From assembly GCA_028023455.1 (NCBI GenBank), contig JAQFVV010000005.1, forward strand, positions 23,420,180 to 23,484,179: a stretch of DNA of 64,000 bases, given 5' to 3'. A model generated the notes under the pieces. That model was not told the DNA's origin. It saw only the letters and a list, made by a program, of their open reading frames with translations, and did not search any database. This document shows, in pieces, positions 1,326 through 52,367 of the stretch. A program made the translations under genes and the position numbers. The DNA comes from Epiperipatus broadwayi (Eukaryota; Animalia; Onychophora). Every line of letters begins with the position of its first letter. The first letter of the stretch is position 1.

Positions 1326-1558
1326 CTTGTAAAATAATATAGGCGCTATTGCACTTAAACACAAAGCTACTTTATATTTAAAACAAAATAATATTATACT
1401 ATTTTGCAAGCACTTTCAAGAGACGTGCTCTCATCTTCATAGCTCTAAATGAATTAATTTTGTTTTAAATATAAAGTAGCTTTGCGTTCAGATGCAATAG
1501 CGCCTATATTATTTTCAAAGTATATTTTTGCATGCAAAGTTTTCGAGTTAGGTTTGAA
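1326..1558. mobile_element. Fold-back element with a degenerate family-B hammerhead in the spacer
   Basis: ~60-bp inverted arms (about 1332-1389 and 1457-1514). 14-bp direct repeat ttcaattagttata at 1312-1325 and 1559-1572. Minus strand 1444-1406 reads AGCT ATGAAGA T GAGAG CACGT CTCTT GAAA GTGC TT. Confidence 0.7.
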
Positions 1559-7879: not shown

Positions 7880-10270
7880 CAAACTTATGTACAAATTTGG
7901 TTGAACATGACACAGGCTCCCTTCACTAGAGAAATTAGTGTACGTTTAGTTACAACATTTAATGTCTTGTTTTTTTCGCTATCATTATGTAATCTAATTG
8001 TTGCTGTTGCATTTTTATAAATATTCTTTAAAATATGACAATGTCCTGGATTTATATATTGATGATCCAATGCTTTAATCACTGAAGAAATGTTTATAGA
8101 ATCAAATGCCTTTTCATAATCTACAAATCCAAAGCATAATGGCAACTCATATTCATTTGTTCTTTCTATAACTTCTCTCAATACCTGGATATGATCTACT
8201 GCACTAAAACCACTTTTAAATCCAGCTTGTTCTCTTGGTGGAAATTCAATGTTCTCTGTAGACAAATTATAATTATCTTGGTAAAATTTTTGTATAAAAC
8301 TAATAAACGGTTGATAGGTCTGTAATTTCTAATATCTTCTTTATAACCTTTTAAAAATATTAATATTAATACTGCATTCTTCCAATCATCTGGTACATCT
8401 TTATCATTTAGACATTTGGTATATAACTTTGCTAAAAAAATTCTATTTCTTCACCTGCTTCTTTTAATATATCAATTATAATTCCATCATTACCTGGAGC
8501 TTTTCCTTTCTTCATAAGTTTAATTGCATGTCTCACTTCTTCATTTAAAATTCTGGGCAATTCAGAAGATATAATAGATATAGGAGGTACTTGTTCTTTA
8601 TTACTATATAATTCTTGATAGAACTCTTCTATCCATTTCATGGTGTCAACTCTCATTTTAGTAATAGTTCTATCTTTTTTTCTTATTGTAGATATAAGAT
8701 TCCTACCAATACCAAAATGTTTTGCATTTTTGAGACTTTTATTCTCTTCTATAGCTTTTTTTTGCTAGTTCATAATTATACTTTCTTATATCATTATCAA
8801 CTCTTTTTCGCACCATTTTACAAGTTCGAGATATTCAATCCTTCTTAATGCATTATTTTTATATATCTTCATATTTCTTCTTTTCTTCATAAATTCTCTA
8901 GTCTCAGTAGAAATTTTATTGGTCTATTGCTGCTTTTTTTACCAGCTATCTGTTGCAATTTTTAAAAGTTAAGTTATTTTTTTATTAATTTCATTCAAAT
9001 CTGAATCATGTTCAAAATCTATTAATACTTGAAAACAATTTGCAAATTCTAATTCAAATTTATTAAATGTTTCTGACGATTAGGAATATCAACTGTAAAA
9101 AATTGTTTTTCTTAATAATTTTTATCTCTCTAGTTTTGCATTAACATGTATCTTACATCTTACTAATCGATGATCACTTACTGTATTGAATTTATTAAGG
9201 ATATTACAGTCTTGAAATATGTATTTTTGTTAGTCAAAATATAATCCAATTCTGCTGTACCTTCATTTGGATACTTCCATGTCCATTTCCTTTTAAAATT
9301 TTTCCCAAAAAAAGAATTCATAATATAAAGTTTCCACAAGTCTATGTCCTCTCTCATTTCTATTATCATAATCAAATTTATCTACATCACTTTTATTTTT
9401 CTTTTGCTACTAATTCTAGCAGTAAAGCCTCCCATAAGAATTTGAAAATATTGTTTAATCTGATCAAAAAAAAAAAAAAAAAGTCTTTTATACATCCATA
9501 TAAAAAATTTCTACTACTTCATCACTGAGAACTTGTTGGGACATTTATCTAAATTATCTGCATTTGGTATCCGCTATTAAGCTGCATAACTAATCTTGCT
9601 ATTCTATCCGATACCCCATCAATCTCCATAATGTTATTCTTCCCTTTTTATTTATAATGAATTTTATTCCACTTGTACTTCCAATATTTCCAATATTTGT
9701 GCCTTTGTAGTAGAGTACATGTCCACTTTTTAAATCGTCTCTTCATCTTTTCTTCTAACTTCACAAAGTCCAATAATATCCCATTTAATATGAGACAGTT
9801 CTTCCAATTCTTACAATTTTCCTTCATTTGAAAGTGATCTGCAGTTGTAAGTACCTAAATAAAAAATCATCATCAAACGGCAGCCCGGATCTTTTAGCAC
9901 CCTCCGCCTTCGGCCACCAACCACTGCCTTGGCTGGTGACTTTACAGCCTCCTGGGAATAAGGGCCATGATTTATTTTAGTCTGACATGATTGTATATAT
10001 CTATTAGAAAAAATTTTTCATTCACACACACATTCATTCTGCCTTATCACTCAACTGAGAAGAAAGACCATGGTATTTCTTGATCTTAAACTCGGAGATA
10101 AAAGGCTAATAAACTCACTATGCTGGCTAATGTGTGTTGGTAAGTAGCTCATCCAATGTTTGTATACTATATGAATAATCACATAGTAATAACAGCTGCA
10201 ACAACAAGAATATATGGAGTGGACATTAGGAATTTCCTTTAAGGTCTCCTAGAGGAATCAAAGGTCTTCT
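7880..10270 (-). mobile_element. Decayed RTE-like non-LTR retrotransposon (APE endonuclease plus N-terminal half of RT)
   Basis: Minus-strand fragments: LGTYNCRSLSNEGKL..KWDIIGLCEVRR (APE start, ~9860), ELDYILTN (9178-9375), KKGKAPGNDGI (8432-8656), QAGFKSGFSAVDHI..FVDYEKAFDS (7885-8265). Multiple stops and frameshifts. Confidence 0.9.
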
Positions 10271-10622
10271 TTCAGTTAACAACAAACTCCTTTCTGCAGA
10301 AATATTTTTCATTAATACAAAAATATGCATTAATATCATTAAAAGTTTAAAATTACCAGAGTTATTGTTGTGACAGTATTTTTATGTTGGATTCATAATT
10401 ACAAGTTTTTAGAAAGCAGGTGTGCTTTATATTTAGCTTATTTTTATAATTTTATTTGACTGGTATTAATGCAGTAAATTCTTTTTTATTTAAAGATAGG
10501 TTGCACAAAAAGGCTTAGAGATTTTAGGGTTTTTAGTTTTTGGTGTTTTAAAAATTATTTTTATATGTTTACATTATCTATATAATCATTTTCAAAAAGT
10601 TTATGATATATTTATTTTATAG

Positions 10623-10818
10623 ATCTTCCAGAGAACATAGTTAAAGGAATATTCAAACTATTGTCCTTATGCCTTCACCGATATCAAGATAGTGGTTCTC
10701 GAAGATTAGTTGAAGAACTCATTCATGAAATTAGCAAAAAATATACATCACACACCTTGAAATATCTTACAACCATCTTAAATGATTTCAGTAATTCTTT
10801 AAAAAATGTCGTAGCCAC
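10623..10818 (+). CDS. GCN1: GCN1 coding exon 3
   Basis: ag/gtaag boundaries, phase 1 to phase 2. DLPENIVKGIFKLLSLCLHRYQDSGSRRLVEELI matches human DLPEGAVKGLCKLFCLTLHRYRDAASRRALQAAI. Confidence 0.95.
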
Positions 10819-12365
10819 GTAAGTTTTTCACATTTGTTAATTAACATTATCTGAATTTTCAAAAATGTTAATAACTGTTATTAGTATTCTGTTTATACAT
10901 ACACACTTAAAATTAAGTACCCTGAATTTAATATTTAAATACATGGTATATTTTCTTTACTAAACTTAATGTAATTGTAAGGGATTTGAACTGAGACTTT
11001 CAAATTCCCACAGACTCCAATCCATCTTATACATAAATTAACTAGCTAAACAAATCATTGGTATTTCCCTTTTTTTAATTTATTTATTATTGATTTGACT
11101 GGCTTGTTTGTTTAAACCCTGAGTAGTTAACTTATGTATTATTTCTGATTTAGTAATATGCATATTTGGAATATAATATAGTGGATTAAATTGAAGCTTA
11201 AAAATTTGTAATTGATTTCAAATTAGCATGTCCCAGATAAATTTTATTGTATTATTTAAATGTTGACAGTCATAAAACGAACTTGTGATTATTTTAAACT
11301 TTAAAATTTGATTGGTCTTGAGTTTGATATTTATATTCAAAGCGTTTTGTACATTTTATTGGAGTACTAGCTGTGAGTTCACATTCAACTGATAAACAGG
11401 GTAATAAGTTGTAAAACAATTGTTTTGAAGAAGCAGATTAGCTGGCTATTTTAGTGTGATGTCAGAAGTGATAAGAATATTTATTATTGATTTGATTAGT
11501 TGGTTTTTAAACTTTGTTTGAGTAGTTTGAATGTTTGATGCACATATTTATGTGCTATAAAGAAAATATTCATATAAGTAGCTTTAACTTTGTGCTGTAA
11601 ATTTCATATTTATTATTTCCATGAATAGATTAACTTAGTGATGAGAATAGTAGACTTTAAAACCATAGATTTCACTCTGTTAACTGAAGGAAAAAAACAA
11701 ACTTAAATGATCTCGCTGAAATATAGTATATAGCTGTAAATATTGAGATGCTGAATAACTTGTCTTAAAGAATGATGAGCAATGGTAAACATCATTGATG
11801 ATGATCAAATATTATTCTTAATTGGTTTTTAATCTCAAATTTCTTTGGTCAGAGAACTTAATGTAGATACAGTGTAATCAATTAAATGGATTTCTTTTGT
11901 TCAGTCTGACACTCTGATATTTCACCATTTCTTGACCTCCAGAAACATGACACAATATTTAAATATTTTTTATGGTGTGCTAATTTTATTTTAATCTTTT
12001 ATACATATATAGTGATTATTGTGAAAATGTACACTCGACGTATTTAAAGTGCAGCAGTCGTGATTTTTTTTTTCTAGAAAGTTTTGTTTTCATCTATTTT
12101 CCAAACTGAGATTTAATAAGAAATTAAGATTGTCTATATTGTTTAGTGCGTTGGTAAAATGGTGGATTTTGGAATTCCAAATCTTTGGCTCATAGCTCCA
12201 GTTCTGCCATTTCTGTTGCTCAAACTTTTTATGAATTCCTAGGGAATAAACTATTTGTTTTTTTTATTTAGAGATTAAGGATATAATTTTATTAAAGTTA
12301 AGATAAGCTTATTGATCCAGTTTCTATAATAGTAGGATATCCACCCGTTGAATAGATCATATATT

Positions 12366-12621
12366 CACATGATCACTATCTCATAGAGTTAAAAGATGGG
12401 TGCTGGAGGGTTGCATTAGATCCTAAGATCTAGGTACAGTGCTCTCAGATCCAAGGCTCCTCACTGATGAAGGCCACAAGCCAGAAACTAGTCTGGGGAT
12501 ATTGGATGAGTAGGCACTAGATAGGGATTTTATGCACAAGCCTTCTGGCATCCATTGATTGCTCTTGTTAGCACAAGATGGCACTACTATATGGAGAGTG
12601 TTGTTTTGTTTTGAATTGTTT
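12366..12621 (+). mobile_element. Family-A hammerhead element, partial monomer with TSD
   Basis: Homologous to about 3575-3810. Flanked by the 15-bp direct repeat aatagatcatatatt (12351-12365; 12622-12636). Starts with a short inverted family fragment (cacatgatcac). Confidence 0.85.
12449..12507 (+). ncRNA. Type I minimal hammerhead ribozyme motif, family A (A3, best-preserved copy)
   Basis: atccaa ggc tcctca CTGATGA a ggc cacaa gcc a GAAA ctag TC tgggga ta ttggat. All core nucleotides present; GUC triplet; predicted cleavage after 12493. Confidence 0.85.
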
Positions 12622-13498
12622 AATAGATCATATATTACAATCATATTTTTATTTTTACACTTGTATATTGACAATTGTCCTCTAATTTCAAACTAATTTG
12701 GGATTTAGTAATAATTAAATATCCAGTAACCAAATATATTCTTTGATTAACTGAATTATCTAATAGAACATTACCTGAAAGAAAAACTATAAACATTCTT
12801 ATGACCTGAAAATTTTTTAAAGTTCTCCTGGGCATGACCTGGTTTCCAGGTTATGAGCATGCAGGTAGATATGTTAAATACTGCATTATTGATGACAAAA
12901 TTTTATTAATTGGTAGATTAAAAATAAAATTATCTTCATTAAGTTTTTATTTTTAATGTTCTGTAAACATTCATAATATTGTAAGATATAATGAGATGGG
13001 GCAATGAATTATTTCCAGAAAAGTTTTTTTGTTTTATATTTGTTGTTATAAAACTGTTTTCATTATTCTTTATTTATTTAATATTATATATATAACTAAT
13101 GATTTAACTTTAATATAGTTCTATTTTCTCCTTATTCTATTTTTTTTAAATATCATTTCTAGTTTGATATTAAGTTTTAATGATATTCATTTTATTCTGT
13201 GTTTATAGTAGTCTTAAAAAACATGAGAATTTTTTAATTTAAAATAAATGTTTAAAGCAATAGTATAATATGTAGCACCAGAATGGAGTTCTCTTGATGA
13301 AGAAATCGAAAAACATTAAAAAGATAGCAGTAGTCATATGAATCGCCCAAATATTTTATTATCAGGGTTCTGGCTTCAATATTAGATCACTTTGTTGGTG
13401 AGTGAGAGATTTTAGATAAATAAATTAATATATAAAATTAACAAAGCATATGACACACTTGAATGAGAAGCTATAAAGATACACAGAAATTATTACAT

Positions 13499-13537
13499 GC
13501 TAAGCGCTTTCGAGGCCTTTTGCCTCATATTCATAGC
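13499..13537 (-). ncRNA. Family-B variant hammerhead motif (A3-U8 core)
   Basis: Minus strand: GCT ATGAATA T GAGGC AAAAG GCCTC GAAA GCGC TT AGC. Repeated 100 and 200 bp to the right with helix III changed to GTGC and GCGT. Confidence 0.6.
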
Positions 13538-13762
13538 GGTACTGTGAGCTGCACACACTTGAATGAGAAGCTATAAAGGTACACAGAAATCATTACACGC
13601 TAAGCACTTTCGAGGCCTTTTGCCTCATATTCATAGTGGTACTGTGAGCTGCACACACTTGAATGAGAAGCTATAAAGATACACAGAAATTATTACAAGC
13701 TAAACGCTTTCGAGGCCTTTTGCCTCATATTCATAGCGGTACTGGGAGCTGCAGCTCACCGT

Positions 13763-13806
13763 ACCTCTATGAATATGAGGCAAAAGGCCTCGAAAGCGCT
13801 TAGGGT
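13763..13806 (+). ncRNA. Family-B variant hammerhead motif (inverted copy)
   Basis: acctct ATGAATA T GAGGC AAAAG GCCTC GAAA GCGC TT agggt. Helix I differs from the left copies (tct/agg versus gct/agc) but still pairs. Confidence 0.6.
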
Positions 13807-16414
13807 GTAATAATTTCTGTGTATCTTTATAGCTTCTCATTCAAGTATGTCATACGCTTTGTTAATTTTGTATATTAAATTATCGAATGAGAAGTCTTAA
13901 AATCTTTAATATAAATAAATTAAATAAATAAATAATTGTGCTCTTAAAGTCATGTGATATCTGAACATTTAATAGTTCCATTCAGTTCATATTTTTTTAT
14001 TCAACCAATAATCGATTCTGGAATGTCTAGCTCCATATCCATTCTAATACTATACTAAACTTCACAGGTCAAGATTTTAACTTATTTCTCCTGATTGGAA
14101 GAAAAGAAAAAAAAATTGACATATGATACTATCCAATAGATATTAAAATTAGCAATTGCAATATTATTACTTAATATTCTCATTAAAAAAAAAAAAATTT
14201 CACATGAAATAAACTTATGTAGTGCTGTTCTGCACTACAATTTGACATCTTATTGATTACTAAAAATTGTATTAGGTAAAGAATTTGCTGTATTCTCCTT
14301 TAACAAATTGACACAAAAAAAAGATGAGGTATAATTGTTTTTTTTTGAGTCAGTTACTACACCATTATAAAAAATGACTTAATATTGAGAATGTATTATA
14401 AATGCATATCCAATAGATATTAACATTAATAGTTACTGGTATAGCCAATTATGTGATATAACTCATTCTTAAAATATATAAAGACATATGATAATCTTAA
14501 GATACATTTGTGACTGAACCTACCTTCATCAGTTGTTGATGAAGATTTCTTGTTTCACATATATTTTCATCGTCATAATTTAGTATTTATTTATAGCAAA
14601 CAACTACAATCTTTTTTTTTTTTTTAACAAATGCACTCATTTCGATGATATAATCTTGAAAAATATTATAAGATTATATATTAATCATTTTTATTAGTCT
14701 ATAAATTATTTAATATTCAGTCCAATTCTAGATTTTAAACTCATCTAAAGATTAATCTACAATTTATTAAATCCCAATATGAATATTATTTATTTAACAT
14801 CTCCCTTTTTTTCTGATATTGTGTAAATTCGAAAATATTTGTAAAAATGATTAGTAAATAATTATTTATTTTTGTCAAAATGAATGCATTTGAGTAATGT
14901 CACATTTGTAAATTAAAGTGTAACTCTTTACTCCTAAAGAATGATGATAAAGACATGTGGACAAGGGTCTGGGTCAAGGTGTTGTAGATAGCTCATCCAG
15001 AAATATAACTTAGGAAATGTTTACTTTTTATAAATATATATATCTTTAAACATGTATTTTAAGAATAGCTAAATTTAAAAGATAGTGTATTGTAAATACT
15101 ACACACGATTGGAAAATATGGGAGGTGTTAGATGAACAATATGTTGGGATTTAATGAGTGATATATTAATTTTTATCTGATTTTAAAGTTTATATTTGGA
15201 ATGATAATTAAATAATAAATTATAGTCAATAAAAGATAAAAAATAATCTTCAACATTTATTCTAAATGATATTGTCAAATTGAACGTATTCAGACAGTAT
15301 GCATTTGTAATTATAATTATTACTGGTATAGCATTAGCATGTGAGTGCTTTAAAGACATGACAAGTGTATGTTGAAGTTAGAACTGTATTGTTGAATTAT
15401 TTCTGACATCATTTTAATCTGTCATAGTTGTTAATTTGAGCATGTTAATGAATAAAAACTAGTGATTTAATGGTACTGTACCTGTATTTTATTTATAGTA
15501 TAGTTCATTTATTGTTTTAATATTAGCTGATGATTGTAATAATGCAACCAAATTATTTCTGTATAATGAAGAGTTGACTACAAGTTTTCAGTCTAATTTT
15601 TTATAAGTAATGAAGTCTTGATTATGATTATGAAACGGGACTGATACATTGTCACAAATATTAGGTAATACAGGATTGTTGGTCTAGTGGCAAAAGAAAA
15701 TTATATTGAAATGGAATTCCAGTATAAGTTTGAAATTTTTATCAATACTTTTCAGTAACCAGCAAGTGATATTAAGCATGTTATTGCCGAATCTATTTTT
15801 AAAAGCTTTCATACTGATTTTTAAATATTTTTATGAATATACAGTAGATACTTATTATTTGTATGTACAGTATATTTAATATTTCTCCTCCACCATATCT
15901 ACTCAGACACATGAAAAAATTTGGAGATTTAATTGTAGTAGTTTATTATTTTTACATATCATGTTTAGATTTCCATCCAGCAATTCATTATCTACAAGTT
16001 TTATTTTAATATTGTATATAATCAGGTCCAGTCTTTACTGCTTTGCTGCATAGCAGTCGTGGCTGGAGGTAGAGATTTAATGTTAAGAAACATGAAATTG
16101 AAAATAAATGATATTTCTGAAACAACAAACAACTATAGAGTTTCAAATAAAAGTATGAATGACTCAATTATAAGAATGTTGGAAAATTAAACAAATATTT
16201 GGAAATTATTGGAATAAATTTTGTCAGTTTTATAAAAATTTAACATTTTGTTTGATATAGTGCGCTGTTAAAGTGAATGAAAATCATATTTAAATAGGAA
16301 ATGTACTTTTTAATCTAACATTTATTAATATGGCCATCAATGCTATTATAAATTTAATGGAAAATGGCAAAGCTTTATTTTTTGCTTGTTTTCTATTATG
16401 ATTTTTTTTTAATG

Positions 16415-16499
16415 TGTCAAAGCGTCGGCGGAGTAGCAAACCCTGGGACAACTGCTTGTAAGATAGCTGTGCTAACCACTTAGCCGCCAACGCTTGATA
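16415..16499 (-). mobile_element. tRNA-like mini-element / pseudo-tRNA (copy 1)
   Basis: Minus strand 16493-16422: GCGTTGG..AGTGGTTAG..TCTTACAAGCAG..CCAGGGTTTGCTACTCCG CCGACGC. 7-bp acceptor stem; decayed T-arm; homologous to 46889-46960. Confidence 0.7.
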
Positions 16500-17331
16500 T
16501 TTAAAATTCTCTATAATAAAAAATTTAAAAATTCATATAATTTCTGATTTAATTTTTCCTTTACTTCATGGAGAGAGGGGGGGAGGTAAATTTTGCACAC
16601 CAGTTGATAACTATTTTGACTATCACTAGTGCATCTAAACATTACAAAATGGTAATACTTCTGTATTACAGTATTTTTTATTTTTTAAAGAGATATTCCT
16701 GTAATTGAATAATATATTTTTTTGTGTTATATTTATACAATTGTGTAAATACATTTATTATGGGCAGTGAAATATCGTAAATCAAAATATACTATTGCAT
16801 ATGTTAATGATATGACATCTACTGCATTAAATATTTATTTTAATTTAATGCATTTGTTAAAGTTTTTTTTTTTGTAGATTACTGTGTTGAGGTGATCTTT
16901 GTAATAATAAACAGTAAGACGTAGTCAGTAACAAATTTATTTAAAAAGTGTATCAATTAAAGTTTGTTTTTCACTTTGACTTTGTTTTCCTTTTACTCAA
17001 TTGCAAGAGTTTTGTTTGTTTTTATATTTCACTCACTGTTTTGTGACTAAAAGTGACTAAACACAAAACTGGAATGTGTTTTGGTTGGCACAGTAATTTA
17101 TTTATGTGTTTATTTCTATTCACTTTTTTAAAGTGGGTATTGATTAATTTAAAACTATAATGATATAAAATATATGAATTACATCGTATTTTTTTAAATT
17201 TTATTTAAATAACATGAATTGTTTAATTAGATTAAAATTCGAACTCAGACTTTCACACGACCCACTACTCTCAGTGCCATCTCATATTGCTGACCCACCT
17301 GATCACCCACATGTTGAAAAGATAAATAATC

Positions 17332-20400: not shown

Positions 20401-20619
20401 AATCTTAAACGGCACCTGAAGACACAAATTGCTTAGAATTTTTTCTTGTAAGTTACTGATGAAGACACAAATGTATACCTATAATATTAAGCTTACTGAA
20501 TTATAAAAGCTACAGTATGATTTTTTAAAATTATATATACATATAAATAAGAGACTTCTTATAATTTAAAAATTTTATTAGCATAATATGTTTTGCTATA
20601 TTTATATATTTTTGATGTA

Positions 20620-21467
20620 ATCATGTGGAAGGAAATTAATCTTCAGACATGTATTATTAAATTGATAGTAAACTTGCACTCACCTCTGAACAAGTGTCAT
20701 AAGTGAATCACTTATGCTTAGAGCCTATTCTTATATAAACCAACTCTTCTTGACCATGCCTAAATCAAGACTTGATCTTAATATAAACCTGATATTTCAA
20801 TTGACAAATTATTTGTACAAATTTAGTTTATATATCACAGGGAAGAGAAAGTTTCTCATTTTTAACTACCTGTGACTTTGAATTATGTTAGTTTGAATAT
20901 CTGTAATAAATATTTTAGTGATTTATATATATATGTATTCATATGGAAGAAAATTAATCTTCAGCCATGCGTTATTAGATTTATATTAAATTATCTAAGC
21001 ACAGTATCTGTAATAAATATTTTAGTGATTTATATATATATAATCATGTGGAAGGAAATTAATCTTCAGATATATGCTATTAGATTGATATTAAATTATA
21101 TAATAGCACTTGTCTGAAGATTAATTTCCTTCCACATGATTACATATATATAAACCGCTAAAATATTTATTACAGATATTCAAATTAATGTACAGTAATT
21201 CAAAATTGCTGGTAATTAAAAATGAGAAACTTTTTTTTCCCTGCGATATATAAACTAAATTTGTGCATATAATTTTTTCACTTTGAAATATCAGGCTCAT
21301 AATATGATCAAGTTCTGATTTAAACATGGTCAGTAAGGGTTGGTTTATATAAAAGTATTGATAGATGAGTGCAAGTATATTTAATATCAATTTAATAGCA
21401 CATATCTGAAGATTAATTTTCTTCTATATGATTATATATATATAAATCGCTAAAATATTTATTACAG
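20620..21467. repeat. Tandem-plus-inverted non-coding element (family D), no ribozyme recognised
   Basis: The motif catrtggaagraaattaatcttcag occurs at about 20622, 20939 and 21045 and inverted at about 21114 and 21405. Inversion centre near 21105. Near-direct flanks atatatttttgatgt (20605) and atatatttgatgt (21468). Confidence 0.8.
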
Positions 21468-21526
21468 ATATATTTGATGTGTGTAAGCATTGTCTTAAGT
21501 ATTTTATATGTATTTATGAATAATAA

Positions 21527-23179
21527 CAGTGTTTCCCAACTTGTGGTATGCGTACCACTAACCTGTGGTACGTGTACCACTGGTGGTACGCGAGTTGCTG
21601 GTTGGTGGTACACGAAAAATAATCAATAATGGCGGACATAAAAAAAAAAATTAAATCATAAAAATATAGAAACGTTTTTTCCTATAATTCATAAAAATTA
21701 TTTTAATTAATAATATTATACAGTAAAGTTGTTAATATGTACAGTCGATAACGATCTTTAATGTTAATGATAAAATTGAAAGTATGATTAAGAAATTAGA
21801 TTTTTGGAAACAGTAATATATATAAGTATCGAAAACAATCAACTGGAAGTATTCGAAACTCTACATATTTTTTTGTTTGAAAATAAGGTTAGTCTGTCTC
21901 AAGATATACGAGAAAATATAATAGCACATTTAACAGGATTAAAATTGTCTTTCATGGAATATTTTCCAAAACCCGAAAACACAAATGATAATTGGATTTC
22001 AAACCCCTTCTATGCAGAAAATTTAGAAAAAGCTACATCATTATCAATAAAGGATAAAGAAAATTTAATAGAATTATCATGTGACAGAACTTTACAAGTA
22101 GAATTCAAACGACACAATCTAATTAATTTTTGGTTAAACATTAAAGAATATGAACAACTTTCTGAGAAAGCTCTTAAATTATTATTACCGTTTACTAGTA
22201 TGGAATTAGTAGGAAGAGCTTTTTCTTCATATATTTTTTTAAAAAATAAGTATCGAAACAGATTGAACGCAGCTGTAGACTTAAGGGTATACCTCGCATC
22301 TTTTGAACCAAATTTCAAAAAATTATGTTGTTCGAAACAAGCACAAAGATCTCATTAAATTTATTTTATAAAAATATTTGATTATGATAAGAAAATATAC
22401 TAATTGGTTTTTTATAATTTTGTGTTTTTATTAAAACCATTTATTAGTAAACGAAATATGACAAAATAGTAGATAAATAATGAGTCGGATCAAGGCAAAT
22501 CAATCTAAATTATTTAATTTGAAAGAATGTATCAGAAAAGGATCATACCCAGAAATTAGACTCTCATTAATTCTTGATCATCTATTGTGGATTACTAGAT
22601 GTAAGCTAGTATTTAATCATCAAAATTTTAATCCTATTAACTTCATGCTGAACAATATAAAGAAAACAAGAACAAGAGATAGCCTGATAACCCCTGAGGT
22701 TATTTTTACCATGACTTGGGACATGCTGGATTTATCCTCTCCATGGCCCAACCAATAGCAAGATGCTCCAAAAAAGAGAAAACAGACTCAAATTCAGGAA
22801 AACCAAATGAAGGAATGAGAAAACACTTTGAACAAAATATGTACCAAATAACCTTTAATGTAATAATGTAATCTTTAATAAATTATTTTGGAAAAAATAT
22901 GAAACTTTGAACAAACACATACATATAAATATGTTACAGTGAGTTTATAATTTCAGTGAGTTTATAATCTGGTGTGACGTTTAGGCGTGTTTCAATGTAA
23001 TTTGTCTCATTATGAGATGTGAATACATACATGGTCACCCTATAATATTTATAATGCAAATAAAATAACACACTCGCAATAACAAATTTCACGAAATACA
23101 ATCATTTTTACGAAGTGGTACAATTTAGCGTGATGTACTACCAAGTGGTATGCGAGCCAAAAAAGGTTGGGTAATGCTG
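21527..23179 (+). mobile_element. Internally deleted hAT (Charlie/Buster-type) DNA transposon
   Basis: TIRs cagtgtttcccaac and gttgggtaatgctg (11/14 match). 8-bp TSD aataataa (21519-21526; 23180-23187). ORF 21804-22358 encodes the hAT C-terminal dimerisation region (LLLPFTS...FS...KNKYRNRL). Confidence 0.9.
22470..22900 (+). mobile_element. Probable 3' end of an L1/Tx1-type LINE nested in the hAT element
   Basis: ORF 22480-22758 contains LLWITRCKLVFNHQNFNP, similar to the L1/Tx1 ORF2 C-terminal IWxxRNxxVF motif. Followed by aataaa and an A-run near 22880-22898. Confidence 0.45.
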
Positions 23180-24491
23180 AATAATAATATTGGTATGTAA
23201 ATGGACATGTTTTTGTGAATAGTTACTTATTTTTAATTATTCTTAATTATTTTTTTAATTATTTTTGTTTTTCTATCAATAAACTAATTTTGTTATTTAA
23301 ATTATTTATTTGTCTGCAACTTAACATTCTCATTCCAAATGCATATATGAATAATTCACTAAAATAAATGTTGCGATATTATCAGTGAAAACTGTGACGC
23401 TATTGCCAGAGGATACTGGATTCATAAAAAAAAAGAAAGGGGCATTCTAAATTCGAGGATAGTGTTCAAACCCTATTTATAACAAATAAATATTTATAGT
23501 GAAATTTAAAATACATGAATTATGATGATCAGGAAATATACGAGTTGTGGAATAATCATCATTATCTATTTTAATTATTCAGACAAATTTAAGATTCAAT
23601 TAGTCTTTCATAAACTGACAACTTATCAGGTGATCTAAAGTTGATCTAGTACTTGTTAAATGTATTCATCTAAGTGTATGTGTATAAATGAGTTGCCAGA
23701 AGAGGCTCCATCATTCCCCAATATAATATATTAATATACGCATATATTCTTATGCTTGCTACCTAATATCTATAGACAGGATAATCCCAAAAATCAGGTC
23801 TTAAAAAATAGAAGGCAAAATCAGTTGTTATATAAATGTTGATGATAACTGAAATAATCAATTGGAATAGATCAGATGTTGAACTATCATTTGAAGACCT
23901 GTTAAATTGAAGTTGTCTAATTTTGAATTTATCAGAAGATTGAAGTTATTGATAAAGATTGTTATGCTCAGAAAAGTTAAAAAGAATAAGAAAACAATCA
24001 ATCAGATAAAGTCAGTAGAAGAAAAATTATTAGGAGAAAATGAGAATGTTGAGATTTATATAGAGTTGTTAAGGAGTAGTCATCTGTATCATTGGTTATT
24101 TTTATTACTAATTTTCAATTTTTTTAATTCTATTGATTATTTGTTGTTTTACATTGTATTTATGAGAAATACAATTTATTTAATTATGAATCATAACATT
24201 GCCGAGTGACAGTTTGTTAATGAAGTGTAAGGAAATATTCTACTAATATGTTATTTTTATATTATATTGGTTTACTTTTCCTATACAATTGTAACTGATG
24301 TATGCACTAGGAACACTAAGAAAAGTTTAGGAATAAAAGTTTTATTATAGTGTGCTGAGCAGTTTTTGATATCTAAATCTTGATATCACACTCATTGCTA
24401 TTGAAAACTGCTCAGCATACTATATACAATACATATATGTGCACAACAATGAAGCTAATTCAATCTTAGAATTAAAAGTGCAATTTAACTT

Positions 24492-24535
24492 TAGCTAAGC
24501 GCTTTCGAGAGACTTTGCTCTCATAATCATAGCTA
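24492..24535 (-). ncRNA. Family-B variant hammerhead motif (A3-U8 core)
   Basis: Minus strand: TAGCT ATGATTA T GAGAG CAAAGT CTCTC GAAA GCGC TT AGCTA. Perfect 5-bp helices I and II; GCGC palindrome in helix III. Confidence 0.65.
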
Positions 24536-24786
24536 CCAATAGTCTGTAAGACTATGTTTTATTAAGTGTTTTATGCAAATTAATGCAAATTGCTTATAGC
24601 TGCCATTTCTGGGAAAGAGCAAAGCAGGTCTCCCTTCTATTAATGGCTTTGAGATCCTTGGCTATGTGGAATGCCTCTCTAATTTTGTGTTTAGGGCCGT
24701 CTCTCAGCACACACAATGCTGGCATTGGCTGGCTGTAAGCAATTTGCATAAAACACTTAACAAAACGTAATTTTACAGACTATTAG

Positions 24787-24830
24787 TAGCAATGATTACG
24801 AGAGCAAAGACTCTCGAAAGCGCTTAGCTA
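24787..24830 (+). ncRNA. Family-B variant hammerhead motif
   Basis: TAGCA ATGATTA C GAGAG CAAAGA CTCTC GAAA GCGC TT AGCTA. One mismatch at the core-proximal pair of helix I. Confidence 0.55.
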
Positions 24831-25019
24831 AAGTTAAATTACACTTTTAATTCTAAGATCGGACTAGCTCCATTGTCTGTGCGTTATACACATATATGTA
24901 CTGTATGTTATTATCCAATGAAATAAATAATTTACCTATTTCATCATACTATAGTAAAACTTTTATTCTTAAGTTTTTCTTATTCAGCATTCCTAGCATT
25001 TACATTAATTAATATATTA

Positions 25020-25210
25020 ATCTAAGATCTAGATGCAGTGCTCTCAGATCCAAGGCTCCTCACTGACAAAGGTCACAAGCCAGAAACTAGTTTGGAGGTA
25101 TTGGATCAGTAGATACTAGATGAGGATTTTATGCACAAGCCTTTTGGCATCCATTGATTACTCTAGCTTGCAGGGTGTGGCAATACGTATAGTGAGTTTT
25201 GCCTGTTTTT
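25020..25210 (+). mobile_element. Family-A element fragment with a core-mutated hammerhead (A4, 25048-25106)
   Basis: atccaa ggc tcctca CTGACAA aggtcacaagcca GAAA ctag TT tggagg ta ttggat. Carries a G8A substitution. Confidence 0.8.
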
Positions 25211-27059: not shown

Positions 27060-30000
27060 AATTATGTAATAAGATAATAGAGGATGCTTAAATACTCTTT
27101 TTTTATAAAGAGGAAGAAAGTAATGGTTATAGGGGATATAAATGGGCATATTGATGATATGGATAACAAGAGTGGATAGCTTTTGAAATTTTTTTGTCAG
27201 AGAATGAATTTGAGCATTGGAAATTTATCAAATGTTTAGGAGGGACAATACACTTGGTCTAGAAATAATATATTTCACACAATAGATTATGTATTAGTAG
27301 AGAAAGAGGGAATGAATAAAGTATGGAAAATTAAAGTGTTTGATAAAGAAGAGAGAGTATGTAATAGTGATCCTAATTTCTTTATAATAGAAATGGGTTA
27401 GTAATGTGATGGAAAATAGTAATAAAAGTAGAAAGGATAGTGAAAGATGTGAATGGAGAATGAATGATAAGAATAAGTTAGAAGAATATAAAATAGAAGT
27501 AGAAGTCATGGAAAAGTTTGTTGGGGATGAATATAAGGACTGATGTGACGAAGTAGAAAAAGTGGCAAATAGGGTTTTAGGAGAGAATATTCAGAAGAAT
27601 AAAACTAATAAAAAAGTGAGAATTAATAAAAGTGTAAAAGAGAGGAAAAAAGCATGCAGAGAATATAAGTGTGTAATTAAGAACAAAGAAATTGAAAAAG
27701 ATGTTAATATTAAATGGGAAAAATATTTAAAAAAAAAGAAGTTGGCTAAAATAGATAATTATAGAGAGAGAATGAAATTAAATAGTAAATTATTGGAGGA
27801 TATTAGTAAAAGTGGAAGAGATGGGAGTAAAAAATTTTGGAAATATATTAAAAGAAGGAATGTAGAGGAGAGAGAAATAATATTAGTAGATGATGAGGAA
27901 AAAGAGTGTAGCTCTAGAGAAGAATTAGTAATAATCTTAAATAAGTATATAATAGATATAGAAAAGATGTTAGATGTGAAGAACAGAGTGATAACAAACA
28001 TAAAAGCATTTAATAATGGAAATATTAGGTTTACAGAAAATGAATTAAATGAGTCAGGGAAGCAATTGAAAAGTGGAAAGGCAAGAGATTTAAATGGATG
28101 GGTAACAGAGATGGTGATGGATTTAGGAAATAGGACAAAATTAAATCTATTATCATGTTTTAATAAGATGGTTCAGAAGAGAGAATTTCCAGATAGTTGG
28201 AATAATACTAGAATAAGGATACTATTTAAAGGAAGGTATATGGATCATAGAAAGTTAAACAATTAGAGACTGATAGTGGTAATGTCAGTGTTATTAAAGT
28301 TTTTATATATATGGAGGCTGGAAGGATTGCAAAGTGGATGGAAGAAAATATCATGGGAGAAATGCAAGGAGGTTTTTATTTGTAGTCACACAACTTATAG
28401 ATATGAGTAGAAATACAGGTAGTTTATTTGTAGTCACACAACTTATAGATATGAATAGAAATACAGGTAGACAGTTATATATGATTTTTATAGATATAGA
28501 TAAGGCAATTGATAAAGTAAATAGAAACAGATTATGGATAATTTTAGTAAATTTGGGAACGAATGGAGCTTTAATGGAGTTTATTAAGAGATTGTATTAA
28601 AATAATTACTGTACCTATCAATTAGGAAATATAGAATCAGTTAAAGTTAAAAATGGAGTGGGACTAAGGCAAGAATGCCCCATATCCCTTATTTTGTTTT
28701 TGTTATATTTAAGAGAAATTGAGAGATTAATAGAAAGACTAGGAAGAGAGATAGAGATACCATTAATAGGTGGCAAGGGAGTATATACATTATCAGGTCT
28801 TTTATTTGATGATGATATCTTCTTGTGCACAGAAAATTGGGAAGATATGGAAGTTATGCAGAAAACGTGCTCAAGGGTGGGGGAAGAGATGGGGATTAAA
28901 TTTAGAGAAGAAAAATCAAAAGTAATAATGATTGAATGCTGGGAAAGTTTATTGGTGGATATAAAGTTAAATGTGGTGATTATGTATAACTATTTGGGAA
29001 TTGCCTTAAGTAATCAGAGAAATGAAGCAAAGAAAAGAAAGGTACTGATAAAGAAATTAACAGTGTTCATATAATAAATATGATGTAGCTAGAATTGTAT
29101 GGAAGGGAGTGATAATAACAGGATTAATTTATGGTAATGGTGCATTATGTGTTAATAAAGGGATGTTAGATTACTTAGAAAAAATATAAAGAGAAGTAGT
29201 AAGACATGCATAAGTTGCAGATATGTGGATGGCAAAGGAAGCAATTCAAAGAGAAATGGGATAGTCAAGTTTTTATATGAGAGATCCGAAAAGCTAAATG
29301 AAAATGTTTGGTAGATTGCAATTTATGGATAATAAGAGAATAGCAAAAATAGTATTTAATTGGTTATGAATAAATGACAGGCAACAAGATGGATGAGAAA
29401 GATAAATATGGTATGCAGAAGATTTGTATAAAGACGTTATGTCAGTATACTTATACAAAAGGTGGGTGTCGAGTGTTATAATGGCAAGAATAGATTCATT
29501 AATAAAAAATAGGAAGTTGGAGAGATGGAAAACTAGTATGGAGAATAAAAAGTTTAAATATATATAGAAATAAACAGAATATTGAATGCGAGTTGATTTC
29601 TGATAATAGCAAGGAAGGTAGTTTATTGTTTAAGGCTTGAACAGGATTGTTAGCAACAAGGGAATATACCCATAAATGGAAAAATATGGATGATTTAGTC
29701 TGCAAATTATGTAATGAAGGCATAGAAAATATTAGGCATCTATTAATTGAATGTAAATGCCTACAAGCAGAAAGTGTACAAATGATGAAGTTGTGAGAGA
29801 ATAAATATAAACGAAATGATTATACAGAAAGTGGGTTCTTGATTTTTATGCTGGGTTTGGGTAAAGATAAGAGGGATTTAGATATAAAGGCCCTAGAGTT
29901 GACAAAAATAATGCTGTGGAAATGGGAAAAGAATAGGATAGAGAAGAATATGGGATAAACTTAGGGTGGAGAATAGAAAGAGAAGGTAAGGTGGCTAACA

Positions 30001-49830: not shown

Positions 49831-49980
49831 CATGATCACCATTTCTTATGCTAGCACATAACTGTTATTAAAACAGGCAAAATTCTCCATACAGTAGTAC
49901 CACTCGGTGCCAACCAGAAATCCATTGATTACTCTGGTTGGCACTGAGTGGCACTACTATATGGAGAGTTTTGCCTGTTT
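49831..49980. mobile_element. Short inverted family-A insertion lacking the ribozyme core
   Basis: Two family-A segments in opposite orientation, joined near 49920. 15-bp direct repeat tgattatttatatca (49816-49830; 49981-49995). Confidence 0.85.
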
Positions 49981-52367
49981 TGATTATTTATATCATTTTA
50001 GCAAGAGCTTTGTGATTAGTTTAGTTTTGTTTATAAAACTATTTTGATCAATATCAGTGCTTGTAGTTATCAATTGCAATAAATGAGCTAAAGGCAGATT
50101 ATTAAAGGTAATATGAAAATAAATCACAATTTGTATTTGAGCATCAGTAACACAACCTTAATAAATGAACAGACAAACTATAACTGAACAGAACTAATTG
50201 TGTACAAATAGCACACAGTTCCTCTTGAATATTTGGAGCATGCATGTTGGATCAAAGCAATGCAAAGCTGTTTCTTTGACACATCTTATATTTGCAAAAT
50301 GCACGGATATATAGTATTATAAAACAGTTATTAATAATATTAATATCAAGATTATTCATTAGTGAAAGAATATAAATAATAAGCATTTGATTTAATTCAT
50401 AATTTTATTTTGGAAAAATAAAAATCTCTAGACAAGCCACACAAACCCTCACTGCGTGCCATGTTTTGAGCAGCCCTAGTGTAATTCATGGATTGATTTG
50501 TATAATTGTCACAAAATTCATCTCTTTTTTATATATATTTTCTGGAATTAGAATGACATTCTTATTTAAGAATGATCGGTAATGATTGTAAAGTAATTAA
50601 AAGCAGTTATTATTATTATAGGTGCACATAAAAGAAATATCATCTTGTATTATTATTATAGGTGCACATAAAAGAAATATCATCTTGTACATAATACATT
50701 AAAACAATTTTTATTAGGCTACTGCTGATATTAATAGCAAGATAGCTTAATTTGTTTTGGAATTAATAAAAATCTTGAAAAATGACATTTATCTTGACAA
50801 TTTCGGATGGAGATGTTTTTAAAAAAGTAAATATTCATATTCACTTTGGAAATTTATTTTTTCAATAGTGCACCTATTTTCAGTAATCTATTGCTGACGT
50901 TTTTATTTCAGAAATTATAATGTCTTTGAATTAATAGGACTAAATATCTATTTTTTATTTTTAGCATGAGATTTTTATTTGTACACATGGAATAAATAAC
51001 TAAAATATATATACATAGAGAGCGTACCAATAGCTCAAACAAGCTCGTAATTAACAAGTGCGGTTATGAGAAATATTTAAAATCTCTATCCAGAACACAC
51101 TTATCTCCAGACCATGATTAAAAGTAATGTCACGTTATATATGACTTGCTTTTTTAATTATTACTGAAATATATATGAATGATGTAGCAGTTTTAAAATG
51201 AACTTTGTCACTATACAGTGTTGCATTAACCCTATCTTTCAAAATGTAATATCAGAATGGATAACCCTACCCAGACGAGATGCTTTCTCATTCTTGATAT
51301 TGAGGTTAATGTACTTGAATTACTTATACTACTGTAAGATTAAAAGAAAAATTGTATTAAGTTCCAAGATTTTCCATATGAATTGGTTATGAATGAATTT
51401 CTCATTACAACTTTTGCTAGAGAATCTTAAAAATGTTTGATAAAATCCAATTATTATATGTTAGTTAAAAATGGCTGGAAAAGCAAAAACAGTTCTCAGA
51501 GTACAGTCATTGATTGTTTTAATCTTCATCATTGAATGCATTAGATATAATAATAAGGTTATTCCAATTAAAAAAAACAACTTAGATAACATAAACAATA
51601 GTATCGACATTTGATTAGGTAAGGGATCAATTTTTAAGCAATTAGGATGATACATTCTTTTTAATGTCGAAATCTTGCATCTTACTAACGGCATTACCGA
51701 ATGATAAATGATCAAAATCTACCATATTAAATGGGCAGTACAGAAACAGAGTCCTACAATTCATTTCTTAAAAAAAAAAACAAAAAACAATAAAAATACT
51801 GTTAATTTAGATTGCTGTAACTTATGGACCCTAAATATATTAATCAAATAATGTTAATAAAATCTTGCAAAACATCACATAGTTATTAGTTTACATTCTT
51901 GCATTAGACAGTAATAATTTGTTGCCACTATCTTAAACTTCTAAAATTATTTGTAAATATAATGGTTCCATAAATATAATCATTACAACAAACTTTTCTA
52001 AAATTGGAGATTTTCCCCAGCGGCTTATGGTGCCTATAACATTGCATTTTTTTTGATTACAGATTTATTTGAATACTTTTTTATAGTCATTTATTGGTAT
52101 GTACATACATTAAATTCATCATTCAAAACTCATTTAATAACTAAACAATTGCGTTCAATGACCATGTGATATCTCTTGATCATCATCAGTGATAGTTTGC
52201 ATGCTTGCCACTCTCTTAACATAACTTATTTTAGATTCATAATTTTAAGGTTATATCATAAACTTTATTGAGCCAGTCCCCCCCTCCCCCCAATGATTAA
52301 GATGCATATCATTTTATTTTTAATGTTTGTTTTTAATATTAATTTTTGTACATGTAATCATTTTTAG

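Follow-up and report, generated by a model that had tools for sequence, protein, structure and literature searches.

The segment 24255-25005 of the window (the whole 64-kb stretch of DNA that was analysed) is best explained as an old 5'-truncated Penelope-like insertion, whose hammerhead motif with an A3-U8 core would cleave itself only weakly and only with help. We assign this reading a probability of about 0.65. The weak, assisted ribozyme is placed in the parent element rather than in the present copy. It is preferred to a non-cutting fold in the same Penelope relic, kept for protein binding or for the start of translation, which we regard as unlikely. The coordinates of the motifs and of the associated features are collected in Table 1.

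Table 1. Hammerhead motifs and associated features (window positions)
Feature	Position	Strand	Remarks
Main motif copy, family B	24492..24535	-	minimal type I hammerhead motif
Second motif copy, in inverted arm	24787..24830	+	U2.1 -> A at 24791; 9a = C
Likely one-sided tail	24255..24297	-	repeated in genome, missing from inverted arm; limits approximate
3' repeat (pLTR) of main truncated copy	24298..24593	-	limits approximate; local hairpin at 24346-24424
ORF end, likely Penelope/Poseidon RT-endonuclease	24594..24731	-	last 45 codons and TAA (24596-24594)
Inverted pLTR copy	24732..25005	+	begins at position matching ORF stop codon; ~90% identical over best 136 nt
Family A, three tandem 100-bp units	13453..13753	-	A3-U8 motif in each; N3 at 13534, 13634, 13734
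Family A inverted copy	13750..13883	+	fourth A3-U8 motif; N3 at 13769
Locus C, decayed related motif	1408..1446	-	A3 opposite G8; helix I broken

Candidate hammerhead motifs

The 44-mer quoted in a preliminary description of this DNA is found exactly, at 24492-24535 on the minus strand. It starts with a helix I of 5 bp, followed by the core A3-U4-G5-A6-U7-U8-A9 with an extra U9a, a helix II of 5 bp opening with G-C, GAAA, the palindromic GCGC and the CUU triplet. Positions 3, 8, 9a, 12 and 17 correspond to A3=24530, U8=24525, 9a=24523, G12=24506 and U17=24497, and according to the standard hammerhead numbering the predicted cut would fall between 24497 and 24496. Alternative registers of the core were dropped on inspection, as G5 or the closing pair of helix I would be lost.

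The conserved core (U4 G5 A6 A9, G12 A13 A14, A15.1-U16.1, H17) is present in both copies at 24.5 kb and in all four copies at 13.5 kb, so that the catalytic-core bases other than 3 and 8 are canonical in 6/6 copies of families A and B. The canonical C3-G8 identity is absent, these positions being occupied by A3 and U8. The 3-8 pair is complementary (A-U) in six of the seven copies, the seventh being locus C with A-G. Helices I and II can form, with 5+5 bp in the left copy; the mirror copy on the plus strand loses the innermost pair of helix I. Traits of the minimal hammerheads of Penelope-like elements (PLEs) are present as well, namely the extra base after A9, the G10.1-C11.1 pair and a palindromic helix III that allows dimerisation. 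Judged by these bases and potential pairs, both segments at 24.5 kb are minimal type I hammerhead folds with an A3-U8 core.

A descriptor allowing any bases at positions 3 and 8 matches the 64-kb window six times, twice at 24.5 kb and four times at 13.5 kb, and all six matches are A3-U8. In 100 dinucleotide shuffles the mean was 0.29 matches, and A-U matches had a mean of 0.03 and a maximum of 1; since the descriptor was composed after the motif was known, this control is generous. A relaxed scan of the window, with one core mismatch allowed, yielded no canonical C3-G8 or U3-A8 motif. Pattern scans with the A3-U8 motif produced no matches in metagenome contigs or in viral contigs. A looser pattern produced at least 120 prokaryotic matches, and among the matches listed 0/120 fold as the motif.

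One could suppose that the motif is a MITE-like palindrome or a chance look-alike, unrelated to hammerheads or to Penelope elements. Indeed, none of the 11 Rfam matches in the window at E up to 5 is a hammerhead, and the ORF described below is unconfirmed by protein searches. However, the excess of real over shuffled matches, the failure of the listed prokaryotic matches to fold, the occurrence of the motif in three unrelated inverted-repeat contexts and the fit of the encoded peptide to the Poseidon motif spacing make such an explanation extremely improbable.

Structure of the probable insertion

The two motif copies are located in the arms of a single inverted repeat, 24446-24581 and 24741-24876. 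The arms have 13 differences in 136 nt (~90% identity), and the homology reaches about 24298 and 25005. Thus the mirror is the other arm of this repeat and not a separate locus. The plus-strand copy announced in the preliminary description is present but not intact, as U2.1 -> A breaks the helix I pair adjoining the core. Its 9a is C, where most aligned public-run contigs have T. The arms differ at 3/44 positions inside the motif and at 10/92 outside, which is a similar rate within small-number noise.

According to the available part of Craig et al. (2021; PMC8557442), PLE insertions are 5'-truncated, often have an adjacent inverted copy and carry a tail of 30-40 bp at one end. The same arrangement was found here: a 5' truncation, an adjoining inverted copy and a one-sided tail, the limits of the latter being approximate. 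The summed depth of aligned run contigs is ~6,600 at 24262-24292 and ~48 at 24200-24230. The left arm goes on as repeated DNA to about 24255, with no counterpart on the right arm, as would be expected of a tail. It is likely, by analogy with the elements in the accessible portion of PMC8557442, that 24255-24297 is such a tail. The inversion probably arose at insertion.

The left arm also contains a 26-bp hairpin at 24346-24424, where the right arm has a different, shorter segment. This may reflect a rearrangement, or else a stem-loop close to where reverse transcription starts. The element is adjoined by an extremely abundant repeat (25022-25200) with a summed depth in millions and nine further blastn matches in the window.

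The spacer frame

The frame between the arms stops, in the minus-strand reading, ~60 nt before the motif. By eye, its peptide gives an ungapped match to the endonuclease end of PoseidonFr in Fig S7 of PMC8557442, within the part of that figure at hand: the highlighted E and N, as well as the neighbouring A, H and R, occur at equal spacing. The base at 24688 that gives the Arg at the start of the PoseidonFr-like motif is seen in about half of the depth (223/448 in run X1, 769/1220 in run X2). Among the nearest named clusters of the ESM Atlas, one has a common Pfam family, which is GIY-YIG (0.84; 17% of members); we take it as a lead only.

The peptide has no matches in Pfam. Its best match in PHROGs has E=0.39 and belongs to a family of unknown function, and the best match in PDB has E=9. 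A phmmer search over 1.84 billion proteins gave two repetitive, uninformative matches, and word searches gave none. Part of the protein searches may have lost sensitivity, since their query also included 16 residues of non-coding origin, contributed by the inverted arm. No parent element with a reverse transcriptase (RT) was recovered. Only 45 codons are left in the 24.5-kb copy, and the RT, GIY and YIG motifs are absent there.

As the HMM and sequence searches are negative, we infer the endonuclease identity from the motif and from its context, which is strong. The frame is likely the C-terminal end of a Penelope/Poseidon GIY-YIG domain, and this makes a Penelope-like retroelement, truncated at the 5' end and accompanied by its inverted copy, the most likely identity of the locus. 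It resembles the Penelope/Poseidon clade, as covered by the available text of PMC8557442, in the truncated ORF end, the pLTR, the one-sided tail, the inverted copy and the PoseidonFr spacing. It differs from these elements in having only 45 codons, and its placement in the clade comes from a match by eye.

The ORF-end segment 24603-24664 has 3-5 times more contig depth than the ribozyme. This suggests related families with the same endonuclease end and other pLTRs.

Related loci in the window

Family A at 13.5 kb consists of three tandem units and an inverted copy. Two of the three tandem units show decay in GCGC or in helix I. In the inverted copy, both partners of a helix I pair are altered, from G-C to U-G. 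Head-to-tail tandem hammerhead units are present in this array and absent at the 24.5-kb locus. Within the window, only this retrozyme-like region (13420-13883) would permit a cis dimer.

Locus C, centred between the 68-bp arms 1322-1389 and 1457-1524 of an inverted repeat, shows decay of the CpG type. Its A3-G8 combination may have arisen privately in this copy, or it may mark a step between C3-G8 and A3-U8. An inverted-repeat layout of the same kind is observed at 24.5 kb, at 13.5 kb and at locus C.

Comparison of families A and B

Helix I, helix II, loop II and position 7 had all been said to differ between the two families. For position 7 and loop II this is correct. For the helices it is overstated, as the inner three pairs of helix I and of helix II are identical in a typical family A copy and in family B; both partners are replaced in the fourth and fifth pairs of helix II (A-U -> G-C and G-C -> C-G). 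The core bases and the 3-8 pair are retained (6/6 copies). The downstream flanks of the two families are indeed unrelated: they align no better than shuffles, the alignment score being reached by 627 and 919 of 1000 shuffles. An apparent similarity of these flanks was removed by the same test.

The A3-U8 core itself had been described as backed by covariation. However, the 3-8 pair is A-U in both families and does not change. The covariation score of the 7-copy alignment of related sequences is reached by 89/500 shuffles; a gap in the alignment meant that the structure scored comprised helix II without its pairs 4-5. Nor can it be said that structure rather than sequence is conserved, as the motifs of families A and B are identical at 34/40 positions (85%). 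The presumed independence of the families also finds a simpler explanation: they are probably homologous Penelope families descended from one A3-U8 ancestor.

On the other hand, two or more repeat families have A3-U8 in common although their flanks are unrelated, which argues for constraint on the motif during their divergence. Common descent from an A3-U8 ancestor, together with constraint in the active parents, would account for both families as one event. The constraint would have acted on active parent elements and not on the 24.5-kb copy. It is evidence of selection, not evidence of catalysis.

Copies of family B in public-run contigs

The 91 nt around the motif align with 152 contigs of run X1 and 121 contigs of run X3, many of them at 80-99% identity. 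The summed depth over the motif is ~8,000-17,000, compared to ~30 per contig, although depth is not copy number. Runs X1 and X3 come from one sample, which may be the source of the window. Related contigs were found in two other studies with the same species label, five in X5 and three in X6. Family B is a dispersed multi-copy family.

The copies are decayed at particular sites. G12 -> A accounts for 20% of the depth in X1 and 13% in X3, and C11.1 -> U for 42% and 48%, respectively; the central CG of GCGC is variant in 23-41%. At six G/C sites outside CpG the variants make up only 0.6-9% of depth. Two positions of loop II are variable at 32-46%. The observed/expected ratio of CpG in the window is 0.35. 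Such a concentration of the listed variants at CpG sites is typical of neutral decay under genome methylation. Among the variants listed there are none at 24519-24530, a zone that includes A3 and U8 and is near contig ends. A3-U8 is probably the majority state of family B.

Some contigs match only ~24494-24534 and then enter at least three other flank types. Since several flank types surround a similar motif, more families have a similar motif.

Fate of the 24.5-kb locus

When the complete inverted element is folded as one transcript, a long hairpin is predicted to take up 41-42 of the motif's 44 bases, and hence a cis dimer of the two mirrored copies is ruled out. The motifs point away from each other, so that each transcript would contain one sense copy trapped in the hairpin, and the locus is likely inert.

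The preliminary description presented the motif as a functional ribozyme subtype with independent support; on this view, taken to include function at this locus, the mirrored copies at 24.5 kb would form a dimer pair through GCGC. Such a subtype would be consistent with the unrelated downstream flanks, the two compensatory pairs of helix II, the intact left copy and the several further flank types around the motif. However, it is very unlikely, as the families share most of the motif with an invariant 3-8 pair and the covariation score is matched by many shuffles. Moreover, the mirror is broken at 2.1, the copies are on opposite strands, and the arms differ within the motif about as much as outside it. 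Function at this locus also finds no support in view of the CpG decay at G12, C11.1 and GCGC, which affects copies throughout the family, and of the predicted hairpin that buries the motif.

Proposed mechanism and predicted activity in the parent element

In the established hammerhead chemistry, G12 acts as the base, and position 8, the pairing partner of position 3, provides the 2'-OH. Exchanging this pair for another Watson-Crick pair can therefore work. In the parent element, tandem pLTRs on one transcript would pair via the palindromic GCGC to form helix III; cofolding of two copies predicts an intermolecular duplex via this palindrome, in line with expectation for motifs of the dimer type. 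A3-U8 would replace the C3-G8 Watson-Crick pair, with the 2'-OH of position 8 and G12 serving as acid and base, and cleavage would occur after CUU. It would probably need the element's own protein, as for the hammerhead of the Anolis Poseidon element (PAc). According to the available text of PMC11167929, that hammerhead cleaves only with the protein of the element and is dispensable for insertion in vitro. The same text reports a partial rescue of a PLE hammerhead by G3-C8, which indicates that the 3-8 pair tolerates swaps in the PLE context.

Nevertheless, low activity is predicted because A3 can pair with U17, lengthening helix I. The probability of the A3-U17 pair in monomer ensembles is 0.91 for family B and 0.80 for copy A1 of family A. 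A comparable mispair, C3-G17, is treated in PMC3884650 as inhibitory. The folding energies of the monomers are no better than those of shuffles in 7/7 copies (z from -0.55 to -1.35). In the full pairwise scan of a type III hammerhead (PMC9901934), only the swap of C-G to G-C rescued the ribozyme, and the other double mutants had low activity. Finally, the published in vitro activity of dimer-type motifs is low, as stated in the part of PMC4209133 at hand.

These data also bear on the unlikely alternative of a motif that does not cut. The rescue by the G-C swap alone and the predicted mispair agree with it, as does locus C, where A3 is opposite G8. According to the available text of PMC11167929, the Anolis Poseidon ORF begins at stem II and ribozyme mutants leave in vitro insertion unaffected, and the Naiads spread without canonical hammerheads in the account of PMC8557442 as far as that text is at hand. 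In 7/7 copies A3 makes an AUG that shares its reading frame with a second one at A9-U9a-G10.1, which follows from the spacing of the motif. However, translation from A3 would meet a stop after 11-13 codons in each of the seven copies, so that a continuing unspliced ORF from the AUG of A3 or A9 is rejected for them. Furthermore, a dead ribozyme need not keep the hammerhead core, whereas G5, A6, A9, G12, A13, A14, A15.1-U16.1, H17 and the 3-8 complementarity are kept in 6/6 copies of families A and B with diverged flanks. We therefore prefer the weak, assisted ribozyme of the parent element.

Other features of the window

Several further segments were noted. A long hairpin at 49867-49984 consists of inverted pieces of the abundant 25022-25200 repeat family and has a weak match to mir-458 below the gathering score. 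A cluster of ~105-bp direct and inverted repeats occupies 20600-21470, with a weak match to mir-581, also below the gathering score. The minus-strand segment 36497-36580, which is single-copy in the window, is GC-rich and tRNA-like and is followed by an A-run; it is possibly a SINE head. Broken LINE-like RT remnants are found at 7885-8764 (minus strand) and 27544-29074 (plus strand), with RVT_1 matches at E=6e-5 and 1.5e-6, below the Pfam cut-off. A plus-strand frame of 188 codons at 21792-22358 has no Pfam match; we take it to resemble the C-terminus of a hAT/ZBED transposase.

Relation to known hammerheads

Minimal hammerheads of PLEs have been described by Cervera and De la Pena (2014; PMC4209133). 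The available part of their paper reports pairs of such motifs on opposite strands, 100-700 bp apart, the extra base 9/10.1, and a palindromic helix III. It also describes a PLE that is truncated at the 5' end and has another hammerhead, encoded by the opposite strand. The motif considered here shares with the elements of that text the short helix I, the G10.1-C11.1 opening of helix II, the 9/10.1 base, the palindromic mini helix III and the NUH triplet. At the level of the locus, the AT-rich flanks, the opposite-strand pairs and the site just after the endonuclease end are the same. The difference is the 3-8 pair, which here is A-U. Among the 56 representative motifs of Fig S3 in the same source, insofar as it is available, 53 have C3-G8, three have U3-A8 and none has A3-U8, and the descriptors excluded A3-U8. 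By all testable structural features the motif, as predicted, belongs with the PLE minimal hammerheads, save for the identity of the 3-8 pair.

Natural variants with a U3-A8 core are known from Perreault et al. (2011; PMC3088659, available part). Like these, the motif described here is a natural case in which the 3-8 tertiary pair has changed in a compensatory way. Unlike these, it has the pair reversed, and A3 adds a possible mispair with U17. PAc, in the portion of PMC11167929 at hand, is similar in being a hammerhead of a PLE whose stem II opens with an AUG. However, PAc has C3-G8 and its ORF continues from the ribozyme, whereas here the frames close in 11-13 codons. The 13.5-kb array of 100-bp type I units resembles the non-LTR retrozymes, which are derived from PLE pLTRs, as outlined in the accessible part of bioRxiv 10.64898/2026.07.22.740005. 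In contrast to the retrozymes of that text, the 24.5-kb locus is inverted rather than tandem and contains an ORF remnant and divergent copies. No report of a natural A3-U8 core was found in the literature searched, whose coverage was without several key hammerhead papers.

The 24.5-kb locus itself is an ordinary transposon relic. However, the A3-U8 core escapes searches of the CUGANGA/UUGANAA type. Since the descriptors of hammerhead surveys are restricted to C3-G8 or U3-A8, such surveys overlook A3-U8 families, and there may be Penelope elements recorded by mistake as lacking a ribozyme. A broader conjecture, which we consider doubtful, is that A3-U8, as the remaining Watson-Crick option at the catalytic 3-8 pair, is fixed across several families of one Penelope lineage, dominates the hammerheads of this genome (as in all six descriptor matches of the window) and may recur in distant animals, the A3-U17 pair being an off state released by dimerisation or by a protein. 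The A3-U8 core offers a natural test of what the hammerheads of PLEs do. If several successful families keep a core with poor predicted activity, then either slow or assisted cleavage suffices, or catalysis is not what is selected.
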